Below, in pieces: positions 42,001 through 51,000 of a stretch of 64,000 nt of DNA; position 1 is the first letter of the stretch; the number at the start of each line of letters is the position of its first letter. The position numbers were made by a program. This DNA comes from Abditibacterium sp. (GTDB lineage: Bacteria; Armatimonadota; Abditibacteriia; Abditibacteriales; Abditibacteriaceae): contig CBDASK010000003.1 in NCBI GenBank assembly GCA_965199495.1, positions 1,472,001 to 1,536,000 on the forward strand, in the 5' to 3' direction.

Positions 42001-45000
42001 GATTCCACTCCAAACCGAAATGGCGTTGCGCCCGCGCGACGACGGCAAAGTCGTGTTGCATTCGCCTTTGTTCAAAGAGTCGCGCGAGTTCTCGCTGGCG
42101 AATCTGAGCAAACAGGACAACTGGATTGACTACGCGCAGGCCGTCGCGTCCGAAATCGCGCGCGAAGGCATCGAGATGCACGGGTTCGAGGGTGTCGTGA
42201 TGTCGAATTTGCCGTTGGCATCGGGCTTGTCGTCGTCGGCCTCGTTTGAAGTTGGGGTCGCCCTCGCATTTTTGCATCTGGCGAACGTCGAAAAATCGCC
42301 GCGCGAAATCGCGCTACTCTGCCAACGCGCCGAGAATAATTTCATCGGAGTTCAGTGCGGCATCATGGATCAGATGGCCGTGGCTGCTTGCACCGCTGAC
42401 CATGCGTTATTGCTCGATTGCCGCGATTTGGCGATGCGACAGGTGCCGTTCAAACTGCGCGATCACGCGATTGTCATCACCGATTCGGGCGCGCCGCGCG
42501 AACTGGCTTCGAGCGCCTACAATGAGCGCCGCGCGCAATGCGAGGAAGGTCTGCGCATTATGCGTAAGCAGGTGCCAGACGCCAAATCGCTGCGCGACGT
42601 TTCGCACGACGAACTCGACGAAATCGGCAGCGAAATGTCGTCGGTCGTGCGCCGCCGCTTGGAACACGTCATCGGCGAAATCGAGCGCACGCAACTCGCG
42701 GTCGCCGCGCTGGAAAAGGGTGATTTGGAAACGTTTGGCCAGCAGATGAATATGTCGCACGCTTCGCTGCGCGACGATTACGAAGTTTCGAGCGCCGAGT
42801 TAGATTTCCTGACCGATTGGGCGCGCCGCCAACCCGGCGTTTTGGGCAGCCGCATGACGGGCGCTGGTTTTGGCGGTTGCACCGTCACGCTGATGGAAAA
42901 ATCGCGCGCCGACGCGTTTATTCGCGGCCAAATCGCCGCCTACGGCGAAGCGATGAACCGCCAAGCGCGCGCGTGGGTCTGCGAGGCGGTTGACGGCGCG
43001 CAAGTGTTGGTTTAGAAGTTTTCCAACAGGGAAAAAGGACGAACGCAAAATAGCGCTCGTCCTTTTTGTTCGACGCGGGCGCTCAACGCGAAATTCGATA
43101 GCAAGCGGGGAGTTAAGTTGACTGCGTTAGGATTTACGCATTTGGCCCACGTTTGTCATTTCGAGCGGAGCCGAGAAATCTTACGCCCGCGCGGCAGCGC
43201 AGTTCGAGCGTTTTCCACATTCAAAGCTTTCTGCGACTTCCGCTGGCGCGGGGCCGAAAGATTTCTCGGCTTCGCTCGAAATGACAGGCGAGCGCAACTG
43301 AGTAAATCCTATGCGTAAACCGCAAATTTTTATAACTCTATTTCATATCTCGCGTAAACTGCTGCATTCCCGCTTTCATGTCCACTTTTCATCCGCCGAT
43401 AGCGTCCGAGGCCAGCGCGAAAATTTCGCTTTCGCACGCGGACATTCGCGATGCGATTTGCCAAAACGCGGGTTTTGACCGCGCGTTTGTCACCATGAAT
43501 GTCCTCGCGGCGATTGTGGCCTGTTATGGTTTGTTGGCCGATAGCGGCGCCGTCGTGATTGGCGCGATGATTATCGCGACTTTGTTGGGGCCAATTTCGG
43601 CGTTTTCGCTGGCGATTGTGGATGGCGAACTGGCGTTGCAAAAGCGCGCGCTGTTGGCGCTGTTGGGCGGAATATTATTGGTGCTGGGCATTTCGTATCT
43701 GATCGGCTGGGTCAATCGCGATGTGCCGCTGACGCACGAAATCAGTTCGCGCACGGCGCCGACGATTTTGGATTTGGCGATTGCCGTGGCGGGCGGCGCG
43801 GCGGGCACTTATGCCACGATTTCGCGAAAATTCAGCGCCAACCTCGTCGGCGTGGCTGTAGCCACGGCGCTGGTGCCGCCGCTCGCCGTTGTCGGAATGT
43901 GTCTGGCGCGCGGCTTAAATCAGATGGCGTTGGGCGCGGCGATGCTGTTTGGCATGAACCTGTTGGGCATTCAAGCGGCGTCTTCGATTGTGTTGTGGAT
44001 GAACGGTTTCCACCAAATCATCTCGCAACGACAAAGCGGCAAACGCCTGCTCGCGCGCAACTTGGTCAGCCCGCTCCTTATCGGCGCGCTGGCGGTTTCG
44101 CTTTCGGTGAGCTTTTATCAAACGCTGGCGCAGCAACAGTTCGAGACCCAAGTGCGCGACAGCTTGAAGCAAACGCTCCGGCAGTATCCCGGCGTTTACA
44201 TGGCCGATTTGCGCTTTGAGGCGCCCGACGAGTTCGACTCGACCAATCGCGTGATTTGCGTGGTGCGCTCGCCCTACTCGCTCGGCCCCGACAAAGTGCA
44301 ATTCTTGCAAGACCATCTGCCCAAAGCCGATGGCCAGCCCATCGAATTGCACATTCGTTCGGTGTTGACCAGCGAAGTCACGACCAAAGGTTACGTCCAC
44401 CAACTGCCCGCAGAAAAAGCCGAAGCAGCAAAAGCAAAAGAAGCGGAAACGGAAGAAATCAAACAAAACGAAACCGCTCAAAGTGAAGATTAAAACGAAG
44501 CGAGCGCTGGTTTCAAGCGTTAGATTGGATTGCGATGCTTTCCCGTGACCAGCGCCTTTCGAGCGCGCAATTCGACCGCGCTTATGCCAACAGCCTGAGC
44601 GTGCGTCATCCGCTCGTGGCGCTCAAAGCGCACCGGCGCGACGACGATTGCGACGACGATTGCGACCAAGTGCGCGCGGCGTTTGTGGTGCCCAAAAAGC
44701 AGGGCAAAGCCGTGCAACGCAATCGCACGCGGCGGCGTTTGCGCGAATGTTATCGTTTGCACGCCCGGCGCGACGATTTAACTGGTTGCGATTTAATTTT
44801 TCTGTCTACGCCCGCCACGCATACAGCCACGGCGACGCAAATCAACGACGCCCTCGACGATGTGTTGCGGCGCATGAAACGTAAATTGGGCGAAACGAAC
44901 GGTTCCAATTCGGGCGGTGCGTCGCGGGCGAATGCGTCCAATCGAAATGATGCGGCGCTTAAAAACACGGAGCCGCAACCCGAATTGGCGGAGTTGAAAA

Positions 45001-48000: not shown

Positions 48001-51000
48001 ACAAGGGCGAAAACACCATGCGCGTTTCGGTGGATGCGGGCGATTATCGCGCGCGTCGCCAGGAATCATTGGAAGCCGTCGCGCGCGGCGCGGCGCAACG
48101 GGCGCGCCGCGAAGGTCGGCCCATCAAAATGGAGCCGATGCCTTCCAACGAACGCCGCATCGTTCACGATATTTTGCAATCCGAACCCGGCGTTTCGACC
48201 CAGAGCGAAGGCCGCGAGCCGTATCGTTGCGTCATCGTCGCGCCCGGACAGAGCGATTATAGCGGCGCTCACGATAATCGTAGCCGTCGCGGCATGGGCG
48301 GCTACACTCGCGGGCGCGGCGGACGCAATCGTAGATAGAAAAGAATGAATAACAAAGGATAAAATTTGCTCCGTCATTTTTTATCCTTTAATTTTATTCT
48401 TTCCCCATGTTTCCCAAACTTCCGCCAAAAAAAACGAAAAAACGTGCGCCCGATAGAGCCACGGCGCGGCGCGAATTTTTGGCGCTCAAGCCGTTGCGTA
48501 ATCCGAACCTGGGTTGGGAAGAAGTCGAAAATCGCGTCGTTTTGCGCGTGCCCCGGCCCGATACGTGGCAGGTCAAAATCGTCAACGTTTTTTTTCCCGT
48601 GCCCGAAGAGCGCAAAGTCGTGCTCGATCCCATCGGCAGCGACGTGTGGCGCGCGTGCGACGGCCAAACTACAATCGCTGACGTAACGAAGGTTTTGCAG
48701 CGCGAATATAAATTGGGCGCCAAAGAAGCGGAACTGTCGCTGCAACAATTTTTCAAAGACCTCGGTCGCCGTGGCTACATCGGCTTCGCGATGCCGGTGA
48801 AACAAGGGGATAAGGAACAGGGAACAAGGGACAAGGAGCAGGGAACGGAGGACAGGACGTAAAATCGAAATTGGCAGCAAAACCCTTGTCCCTTATTCCC
48901 TGCTCCTTGTCCCTTAGAATTCGCTAAACTCTCCAATTCCAATGGCTGCAATGAGTTCTTCGCCGCGCGTCGAGCGGCAAATTTCCCTTCCCTTTAATCA
49001 GGCGTTCAAAATCGCGTTGCGCAACATCACGATTCGTCTGGGTCGCGCCATGATTACCGGCGCGGGCACCATGCTTGGTATCGCGTTTTTGATGAGCGTT
49101 TTCGCCGCCGGATTGGTTTTGACGGCCAAAGGCGTCACGCCCAGCGCAGCCCAATCGCAAAAATCGTTGTGGCTGGTCATCATGTCGCTTTTGGTGTGTT
49201 TTGTCGGCATCACCAACTCAATGCTGATGAGCGTAACCGAGCGTTATAAAGAGATCGGCACCTTCAAATGTCTGGGCGCATTGGATAATTTCATCATCAA
49301 ATTGTTCTTGATCGAATCGGGTTTGCTCGGTTTTTTCGGTTCGCTGGCGGGCGCGCTTTTAGGTTTGATTTTCGTGTTGCTCACCAATTTGGGCGTCGTT
49401 ACCAGACTCGACTGGAGCCGCGTTTTGCTTTATCTGGGCGCGTGCATCGTGATTGGCACCCTACTTTCGATTGGCGCGGCGGTTCCACCCGCGTTTCGCG
49501 CCGCCAAAATGCAAGCTGTTGATGCGATGCGTTCGGAAGTTTAGTTTCGCACTCTGGAAACCTCGATTAAGTTTTTAGTTTTCAACTCCAATTCAAATAT
49601 CATGGCCCAAGAAAATCTCCCCGACATCGAACCTGTAAACGGCAACTCCGTTTCTGTCGCTAAAAATGGGGTAGCCACGCCAGCGACTCTCACTCCCGAA
49701 GATTACTCCGCCAGCGAAAATATCGTGCGCGTGCGCAACGTGAAGCGCACTTATTACATCGGCCAAAACCCGGTTCACGCGCTACGTGGCATTGACATTG
49801 ATATCCGTCGTGGCGAGTTTATGGCCATCATGGGGCCATCGGGAAGCGGCAAATCCACGCTGTTCAACATGGTCGGCGGACTGGACAAGCCGACCGAAGG
49901 CACGGTTTTCATTGACGAAGTGGACATCGCCCAACTTGATCCGGGCGAATTGGCGTGGTTGCGATGCCGCAAAATCGGCTATATCTTCCAGACGTTCAAC
50001 CTGATTCCCGTCATGACGGCACTCGAAAATGTGACTTTGCCGATGATTTTCGCGGGCGCTTCGCTGGATGAACAAATGGAGCGCGGACGCCGCTTGCTGG
50101 AATTGGTCGGATTGGGCCATCGCCTGATGAACAAGCCAGGCGAATTGTCGGGAGGCCAGCAACAGCGTGTGGCGATTGCGCGCGCGCTGGCCAACGATCC
50201 GGCGATTATTCTGGCCGACGAACCGACGGGAAACTTAGATCAGGAAGTCGGCGAAGAGATCATTCAGATGCTTAAGCGTTTGAACAAAGAGAGCGGCGTG
50301 ACGATTATCACGGCGACGCACGACGACAAAATGTATAAGCGTGCCGACCGCGTGGCTGTTGTTCTGGATGGAGAAATTCTGGACGTTGTGCCGCCCGATA
50401 AAATTGGCGACCACACGGTTGACGGCTTCAAAACGCTCAAAGAACGCAAAGCCGAGCGCGACTCCAAGGAAGACCCCGAAGGTCTCATTGCCTCGTCCGC
50501 CGCGACGATGTAGAAATTTAGGGAGAGGTGAAACGCTTCCGCGAATTGAATCGTGGAAGCGTTTTTGTTTTTGAATTTTTCTCGCAGTTACAGAGCTTGC
50601 GGATTTGAAAGCCCTATATCTGGCGGCGCGGCTGTGAGGATGAGTGACGCGGCCAAACCGGGCGCCACACGCTCAAATTTTGTAAGCTCTGTTACATGGA
50701 TTCTTCAAGCGATCTGGGCATGGTTCTGGTGATTTCCGGGCCGTCGGGCGTGGGCAAAGATACCGTCTGGCAACTTGCCCAAAAATGTTTGCCGACTTTC
50801 GGGCGCGCCGTCACCTGCACGACGCGCGCGCGGCGCGAACACGAAATTGAAGGCGAAGATTATTATTTCGTGTCACACGCCGAGTTCGACCGCATGATTC
50901 GCGAAGATGAGTTGGTCGAATGGGCCGAAGTCCACCAGAACCGTTATGGCGTGCCCAACAAATCCATTTTCGAGCGTATTCTCAACGGCAAAGACGTGGT

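Follow-up and report, generated by a model that had tools for sequence, protein, structure and literature searches.

The C5 side chain of the wobble uridine, (c)mnm5U34, is made in Escherichia coli and Bacillus subtilis by the MnmE-MnmG pathway. The genes mnmE and mnmG have been called universally conserved (PMC9976899) and also absent in Actinobacteria only (PMC6063277), and a COG table records MnmG for no more than 4 of 9 Chloroflexi and 44 of 49 Clostridia (PMC5954106). An alternative route to the U34 C5 group is provided by bacterial Elp3 of the Dehalococcoides type. The Actinobacteria (Mycobacterium, Streptomyces) include free-living members which keep MnmA, have no C5 enzymes and retain C34 tRNAs (PMC6063277, PMC10531406, PMC12772374). 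This loss has been tied to extreme GC3, and an explanation through the C34 tRNAs is already published (PMC6063277). In Mycobacterium the MnmA-dependent thiolation proceeds without C5 enzymes (PMC10531406), while for MnmEG-less Streptomyces the absence of (c)mnm5 nucleosides was confirmed by MS (PMC12772374). Salmonella mutants that lack only one of the two groups grow, though poorly, and the double mutant does not grow (PMC5400242).

The window, a stretch of 64,000 nucleotides of Abditibacterium DNA, was analysed at the gene block rnpA-yidD-yidC-jag. The features of this locus are as follows.

44535..45320, + strand, RnpA and YidD sharing one reading frame, 261 aa (PF00825 and PF01809 above cut-off)
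45425..47113, + strand, YidC membrane insertase (PF02096)
47271..48338, + strand, Jag/KhpB with KH and R3H domains (PF13083, PF01424)
48339..48406, no strand, junction of 68 bases between jag and the PqqD-like gene; position of mnmE in class outgroups G255 and G280
48407..48862, + strand, PqqD-like protein, the gene next after jag (PF05402)
48942..49544, + strand, short FtsX-type ABC permease (PF02687)
49602..50513, + strand, ABC transporter ATPase (PF00005)

The rnpA and yidD genes were separate ORFs in two of the three relatives checked. In the two class outgroups G255 and G280 mnmE lies directly 3' of jag, and the order in G280 is jag, mnmE, mnmG, rsmG. The survey's finding that other genes hold this usual place of mnmE is correct, as the PqqD-like, permease and ATPase genes stand there, and the junction after jag is too short to hold an mnmE relic. 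The jag gene was matched in all 27 Abditibacteriaceae genomes, with the PqqD-like gene 3' of it at 26 of these loci and a contig end at the 27th. Compared with the E. coli/B. subtilis pathway, the family keeps the gene block, the paralogue TrmFO and RsmG, the last encoded elsewhere, away from the block, but has neither MnmE nor MnmG, and searches for MnmC, MnmL and MnmM, which act downstream of them, gave nothing.

MnmE and full-length MnmG were detected in none of the 27 genomes of the soil-type Abditibacteriaceae, which upholds the family-wide loss claimed earlier. None of the 27 family genomes passed the TIGR00136 cut-off, against 9 of 14 controls, the weak match in G000 being identified as TrmFO and not MnmG, and PF12631 (MnmE helical domain) was present in 0 of 27 against three of four class outgroups. 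The sole family match to PF13932 (GIDA C-terminus) was a 53-residue fragment at the extreme start of a G020 contig. This MnmG fragment shows 39% identity to each of two outgroup proteins, themselves 43% alike there; it gave no match against E. coli genomes and may be of foreign origin. The tblastn search of G000 with outgroup MnmE and MnmG returned nothing but Der, Era, HflX and TrmFO, besides one unnamed match with E 0.036. A truncated MnmE among the G000 GTPases was rejected, these being Der, Era and HflX, and so was a second TrmFO/MnmG-like flavoprotein, as G000 holds one TrmFO only and the motif screen gave no candidate of 500-750 aa.

It is extremely improbable that both genes are present and were overlooked because the assemblies are incomplete or the sequences extremely divergent. 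The completeness of the family genomes (63-97%) and the G020 fragment would allow such an error; however, 16 genomes reach 90% completeness or more and several assemblies are nearly closed, the three profiles and the direct tblastn search are concordant, and MnmA and jag were both matched in all 27 of the same assemblies, with the site after jag contiguous and filled. Among the class outgroups, MnmG was above cut-off in G181 and G280; G234 has it divided between two contigs, and the 72% complete G255 gave no match. The absence of MnmE from G181 (89% complete) is likely an assembly gap, since a jag match is also missing there and mnmG lies close to a contig end.

The distribution over the phylum revealed that the loss is not unique to the Abditibacteriaceae. 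About one quarter of the good genomes lack both mnmE and mnmG, several other families being without the two genes, and presence or absence plotted on a FastTree tree of RpoB only gave 6 to 8 state changes. For these changes close sister groups are available, of which one has Elp3, so the phylum offers replicate tests of the model that C34 tRNAs permit loss. The clade adjacent to the Abditibacteriaceae on the tree (f11, f19, f34) is also without MnmEG, so that an older loss followed by regain in the class outgroups is conceivable. The preferred reading, to which a probability of about 0.68 is assigned, is a single ancestral loss of mnmE and mnmG with no known replacement, decoding by s2U34 alone together with C34 tRNAs, and an A-codon share that is mainly a DNA signature. 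The absence of the genes was observed, and we infer from it the direction, one loss in the ancestor of the family. It is a kind of loss already known from the Actinobacteria, here in another lineage; the same arrangement would have been reached independently, as one among several losses in the phylum.

MnmA, which the survey's finding had described as kept, was matched in 27 of 27 genomes, 26 of them above cut-off. The SGGVDS and CxxC motifs and the third cysteine are intact in G000 and in all six other family loci read. A cysteine desulfurase gene lies upstream of mnmA in G000 and in four of those six; the other neighbour is a gene preceding a grpE/dnaJ-like cluster. The claim that all six C34 partner tRNAs are present was borne out in G000. 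The C34 tRNAs were surveyed across the family by sequence patterns with matches judged by eye, Leu(CAA) in G000 only; this gave Lys 26/26, Glu 25/27, Gln 22/27 (and one doubtful), Arg 22/27 and Gly 24/27, these five being complete in all six checked family genomes with at most 10 contigs. As Lys(CUU) also occurs in 8 of 10 MnmEG-positive relatives, and among the class outgroups Glu(CUC) and Gln(CUG) in three of four and Arg(CCU) in four of four, the C34 tRNAs permit MnmEG loss but are no marker of it. The proposal that they free the U34 tRNAs from G-ending codons is plausible, though neither specific nor new.

On the preferred reading, the desulfurase and the intact CxxC-type MnmA would still make s2U34 on Lys(UUU), Glu(UUC) and Gln(UUG). 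These tRNAs would read AAA, GAA and CAA, and the ancestral C34 tRNAs would read AAG, GAG and CAG, so that a C5 side chain aiding the reading of G by U34 becomes dispensable. By analogy with the Actinobacteria, the Lys, Glu and Gln tRNAs most likely carry s2U34 only, with the G-ending codons left to the C34 tRNAs. A C5 group is probably missing from Arg(UCU), Leu(UAA) and Gly(UCC), and the codons of Arg(UCU) and Leu(UAA) are rare. Corynebacterium in the control set showed the same pattern of MnmA without MnmEG. Unlike the Actinobacteria, the Abditibacteriaceae are an independent lineage of moderate GC with a majority of A-ending Lys and Glu codons, G000 (GC 55.7%, GC3 0.67) shows neither extreme GC3 nor G-ending dominance, and G000 is also without TrmL. 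The family places most Lys and Glu decoding on presumably under-modified tRNAs and is therefore a well-suited natural system for asking whether s2U34 alone suffices. The genus has a named species, presumably cultured, so the tRNA chemistry is measurable.

Substitute U34 enzymes were searched among named families and 13 radical-SAM candidates from the 3,935 called genes of G000. The Elp3/MnmL domain (PF16199) was absent from all 27 family genomes, and TIGR01211 (Elp3) was above cut-off in 0 of 4; MnmM, MnmC and SelU were each not found in the five genomes searched, TrmL was above cut-off in none of five, and TrhP gave 0 of 31. The radical-SAM proteins scanned were MiaB, MtaB, RimO, RlmN, QueE, HemW and others; two of them, TIGR03279-like and TrsS-like, were below cut-off and received no assignment. 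A PP-loop gene next to tRNA-Ile(UAU), considered as a tRNA enzyme, was identified as LarE, TilS being present too.

It is possible, although rather unlikely, that an unrecognised enzyme modifies U34, adding either a novel C5 substituent or a ribose methyl like that of the actinomycete s2Um, MnmEG having been displaced and not simply dropped. The U34 tRNAs still do most Lys and Glu decoding, and Arg(UCU) and Leu(UAA) of the split boxes would otherwise carry a bare U34; TrmL, SelU and TrhO/TrhP were not found in G000, and in the absence of TrmL nothing known keeps these two tRNAs off near-cognate codons. Displacement seems to occur in the phylum, as all five genomes of family f19, which is without MnmEG, have Elp3 above the TIGR01211 cut-off, and the enzyme making s2Um in Streptomyces is not yet identified (PMC12772374). 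This is countered by the lack of a candidate among the mnmA neighbours and the radical-SAM proteins scanned, and by most of the remaining MnmEG-less families having no Elp3 either. A broader form of this idea, put forward tentatively, is an undescribed control of U34, either by a new enzyme or by tRNA structure restraining the bare U34 of Arg(UCU) and Leu(UAA), and perhaps acting also in the other families without MnmEG and Elp3. An example of such structure is the C31.U39 mismatch of Arg(UCU), which was present in 11 of 22 Abditibacteriaceae genomes and in 0 of 32 outside genomes. If true, three solutions would stand side by side in the phylum, namely MnmEG, Elp3 and the undescribed one.

The codon usage of the 3,935 called genes of G000 reproduced the Lys and Glu ratios given earlier, with AAA 40542/AAG 14184, GAA 55733/GAG 23690 and CAA 29726/CAG 23124, corresponding to A-ending shares of 0.74, 0.70 and 0.56. 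The described preference for A-ending codons is true of these three boxes and is no general feature, as GCA (6%), CCA (10%), ACA (8%), GTA (3%) and TTA (8% against 40% for TTG) are low. At mirror sites, read by no U34 tRNA, the three values were 0.69, 0.64 and 0.48, so the codons exceed them by 0.05-0.08; intergenic trinucleotides gave AAA 0.68, GAA 0.63 and CAA 0.68, and intergenic dinucleotides AA/TT 1.52 and AG/CT 0.82. The A-ending bias is largely this strand-symmetric AA/TT-over-AG/CT bias of the DNA, and it would be neither a cause nor a clear consequence of the loss. A special, translation-linked preference for A was not sustained, the bias being matched by intergenic and mirror sites and weaker in 38 highly expressed genes than in all genes (AAA 0.66 vs 0.74, CAA 0.33 vs 0.56, GAA 0.66 vs 0.70). 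A-ending codons were likewise rejected as translationally preferred, since these genes and rpoBC move to AAG and CAG. AAA was not avoided in slippery AAA-A/G contexts of G000 (share 0.81 before A, 0.80 before G), hence no compensation for them is visible, a point against the preferred reading.

A causal link, by which tRNAs with s2U34 only read A-ending codons best and selection shifted codon use, is improbable. The family rpoBC A share (0.36-0.69 vs 0.24-0.36 in class outgroups) exceeds the GC trend of other genomes by 0.28, and by 0.12 after mirror control with a scatter of 0.095; the MnmEG-less family f34 is raised as well (+0.19), and mnm5U reportedly prefers NNG to NNA (PMC9976899). Against this link, besides the fewer A-ending codons of the highly expressed genes, the rpoBC shift towards AAG and CAG was seen in each of 10 family genomes and also in the mean of 17 MnmEG-positive ones. 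The MnmEG-less families f18, f23, f26 and f27 are strongly G-ending, with mean A-ending shares of 0.07-0.11, which also speaks against a special, translation-linked preference for A. Outside the Abditibacteriaceae the mean A-share residual was equal in MnmEG-negative and MnmEG-positive genomes, and no phylum-wide codon signature of the loss was seen. Three of 40 background samples (below 1000 codons) and G234 (566 rpoBC codons) were left out of some codon summaries. The codon A excess was only partly removed by the DNA bias, an observation that counts against the preferred reading.

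The presence of MnmE and MnmG (together MnmEG) was analysed in the 27 genomes of the family Abditibacteriaceae. For MnmE, TIGR00136 was over its cut-off in 0/27 family genomes against 9/14 controls, and PF12631 matched in 0/27 against 9/14. The sole family match to the MnmG C-terminus (PF13932) was a fragment in the genome G020, which may be a relic or may be a chimeric contig end:

L021:1-159, start of a G020 contig: MnmG C-terminal fragment, 53 residues, in frame with unrelated sequence

When the genome carrying the window (G000) was searched directly with the outgroup MnmE and MnmG proteins, the matches were only Der, Era, HflX and TrmFO, plus an unnamed one at E 0.036. 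MnmA was found in 27 of 27 family genomes, 26 of them over the cut-off, with the cysteine motifs kept; a cysteine desulfurase gene lies upstream of mnmA in G000 and in 4 of 6 other family loci examined. These results bear out the survey's finding of a family-wide loss of MnmE and MnmG with retention of MnmA. Genome incompleteness cannot explain the pattern of absence, and the loss in Abditibacteriaceae is real and independent.

The G000 assembly has 3 contigs (95% complete, 55.7% GC), the window being on the 4.72-Mb contig (C3). The nearest named relatives by YidC carry the labels Abditibacteriales (92%), Abditibacterium sp. (76%) and Abditibacteriaceae (55%); these are soil bacteria that GTDB places in Armatimonadota. 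In this part of the window RnpA-YidD, YidC and Jag stand in that order; 68 bases further on comes a PqqD-like gene, followed by genes for an FtsX permease and an ABC ATPase:

Window 44535-45320: fused RnpA and YidD, one frame
Window 48407-50513: PqqD-like protein, FtsX-type permease (200 aa) and ABC ATPase, which throughout the family stand together downstream of jag as a conserved unit

The PqqD-like gene comes next after jag in 26/27 family loci, the 27th being a contig end; the usual place of mnmE is occupied by other genes, as had been stated. Among the class outgroups, mnmE follows jag in G255 and G280, in the latter followed by mnmG and rsmG. G234 has both genes away from jag, and G181 has mnmG close to a contig end with no match to jag or mnmE, which looks like an assembly gap. 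The permease of the unit shows 58-96% identity across the family (observed range about 68-96%). The RnpA-YidD fusion is common to the window and its nearest relative, with separate ORFs in two other relatives; an rpmH-like ORF lies upstream in the extracted stretch L194, and the window has none at the corresponding site.

Replacement enzymes were also searched. The Elp3/MnmL domain (PF16199) was found in 0/27 family genomes and TrhP in 0/31 class genomes, and TrmL was over cut-off in 0/5 genomes. MnmM, MnmC and SelU were each sought in 5 genomes, 3 or 4 of them from the family and the rest outgroups, and were not found. TrhO was found in G003 and G019 and not in G000, G026 or G280. Of the 23 CxxxCxxC proteins of G000, 13 were scanned as a radical-SAM screen; MiaB, MtaB, RimO, RlmN and QueE were among them and none was Elp3-like. 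Modification of U34 by an as yet unrecognised enzyme, the more interesting possibility, is unlikely given that these screens for Elp3/MnmL, MnmM, MnmC, SelU, TrmL and TrhP turned up no candidate in G000, but it keeps some chance since they covered named families and 13 proteins of G000. A 511-aa radical SAM protein (L071:1-1533) resembles TrsS and the tetraether lipid synthase Tes but scores under the cut-off for each.

All six C34 partner tRNAs are present in G000, as the survey had reported, plus C34 tRNAs for four-codon boxes. A pattern search across the family, with matches judged by eye, gave Lys(CUU) in 26/26, Glu(CUC) in 25/27, Gln(CUG) in 22/27 with one doubtful, Arg(CCU) in 22/27 and Gly(CCC) in 24/27; all five occur in G000, G003, G011, G012, G019 and G026. 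MnmEG-positive relatives also carry them (Lys 8/10, Glu 3/4, Gln 3/4, Arg 4/4, Gly 1/4). The C34 partner tRNAs are therefore ancestral and permissive for the loss, matching the model published in PMC6063277.

Some tRNAs of G000 have anticodon-stem mismatches or stand in array-like sets:

C3 4190137-4190208, 3273287-3273359 and 3870295-3870368: tRNAs with 31-39 mismatch, C.U in Arg(UCU) and U.U in each of the two main tRNAs for Gln
C3 1551680-1552003 (L084), 3473050-3473125, 4061305-4061537, 4621966-4622040 (L083) and 4284143-4284216: extra array-like tRNA genes

The pattern for Arg(UCU) matched in 54/80 genomes, and the C31.U39 mismatch of this tRNA occurs in 11/22 family genomes against 0/32 outside. 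As AGA makes up just 2% of Arg codons in G000, relaxed selection and compensation explain this mismatch equally well. Among the extra genes are Leu(UAA), Leu(CAA) and the sole Leu(UAG), whose variable arms are short, together with an Ile(UAU) gene although TilS is present and one gene called a stop (UUA) tRNA by ARAGORN.

The likeness to Actinobacteria lies in an MnmEG loss reached independently with MnmA kept. The loss probably works like the Actinobacterial case (probability about 0.68), in which predicted s2U34 tRNAs would read A-ending and C34 tRNAs G-ending codons. In the literature, both genes are stated to be absent in Actinobacteria only (PMC6063277, whose supplementary figure of minor losses may add lineages) or termed universally conserved (PMC9976899); MnmG is already listed for 0/74 Actinobacteria, 4/9 Chloroflexi and 44/49 Clostridia (PMC5954106); actinobacteria with MnmA only are described (PMC10531406, PMC12772374), the second paper detecting s2Um but confirming none of the (c)mnm5 nucleosides; in Salmonella, mutants without one of the two U34 groups show poor growth and those without both show none (PMC5400242); and 10.1101/2023.12.21.572861 is restricted to genomes that carry MnmA, MnmE and MnmG together.

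The survey had set the loss against a preference for A-ending codons. This preference holds for AAA, GAA and CAA (genome-wide A shares in G000 0.74, 0.70 and 0.56) and fails for the Ala, Val, Pro, Thr and Ser four-codon boxes, which avoid A, and for Leu, which favours TTG. Intergenic DNA gave 0.68, 0.63 and 0.68, and the mirror test, which compares T with C at those four-fold third positions that precede TT, TC or TG and are unread by the U34 Lys, Glu and Gln tRNAs, gave 0.69, 0.64 and 0.48. The genome is rich in AA/TT and poor in AG/CT on both strands, with values of 1.52 and 0.82 in intergenic DNA; at codon junctions AG is 0.62 and CT 0.56. The 38 highly expressed genes have lower A shares (0.66, 0.66, 0.33). 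When rpoBC was compared over 60 genomes, the A share of the family exceeded the GC trend by 0.28, and still by 0.12 once the mirror control was applied (scatter 0.095), and the 20 other MnmEG-less genomes were no different from the 26 MnmEG-positive ones; a shift to AAG and CAG was seen in all 10 family genomes and also in the average of 17 MnmEG-positive genomes. These rpoBC comparisons are descriptions and not tests, as kin genomes are not independent. The contrast thus reflects mostly DNA composition and the puzzle is largely explained away; a small tRNA-linked remainder is possible. The whole genome shows CG 1.58, AA/TT 1.59, AG/CT 0.63 and TA 0.50, and CTAG occurs just 94 times in its 4.7 Mb.

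Of 401 evenly sampled Armatimonadota genomes, 280 had a match to MnmE and 276 one to the MnmG C-terminus (223 and 224 of the 300 good genomes). Neither was found in the families f6 (n=1), f11 (n=4), f18 (n=6), f19 (n=5), f23 (n=2) and f26 (n=13); f27 had MnmE in 0/15 and the MnmG C-terminus in 1/15, f22 had 4/11, and no f34 genome was among the matches. MnmA is kept in one genome each of f6, f11, f18, f19 and f23. An unrooted FastTree RpoB tree of 61 genomes, picked to cover both MnmEG states, needed 8 state changes, of which well-supported branches force 6 or more, and placed the family as a single clade beside four MnmEG-positive class members. In f6, f11, f18, f23, f26, f27, f34 and part of f22, with neither gene nor Elp3 found, the A-ending share spanned 0.06 to 0.60, which makes them replicates of the loss against differing codon usage.

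Full-length Elp3 was over cut-off in 5/5 f19 genomes, in which MnmE and MnmG are 0/5:

L064:613-2175: f19 Elp3
L065:601-2184: f19 Elp3
L066:1057-2685: f19 Elp3
L067:598-2175: f19 Elp3
L068:1060-2700: f19 Elp3

This is a candidate non-orthologous displacement of MnmEG outside Dehalococcoides, the only source from which the available part of PMC7663514 names bacterial Elp3. A literature search, outside which most subscription journals lay, found no report of MnmE/MnmG loss in Armatimonadota or Abditibacterium, nor of mutual exclusion of Elp3 and MnmE in bacteria; the loss in Abditibacteriaceae is apparently new to the literature, and its recurrence in the phylum and the family that bears Elp3 add value. 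The single further PF16199 match beyond f19 was MnmL in G280.
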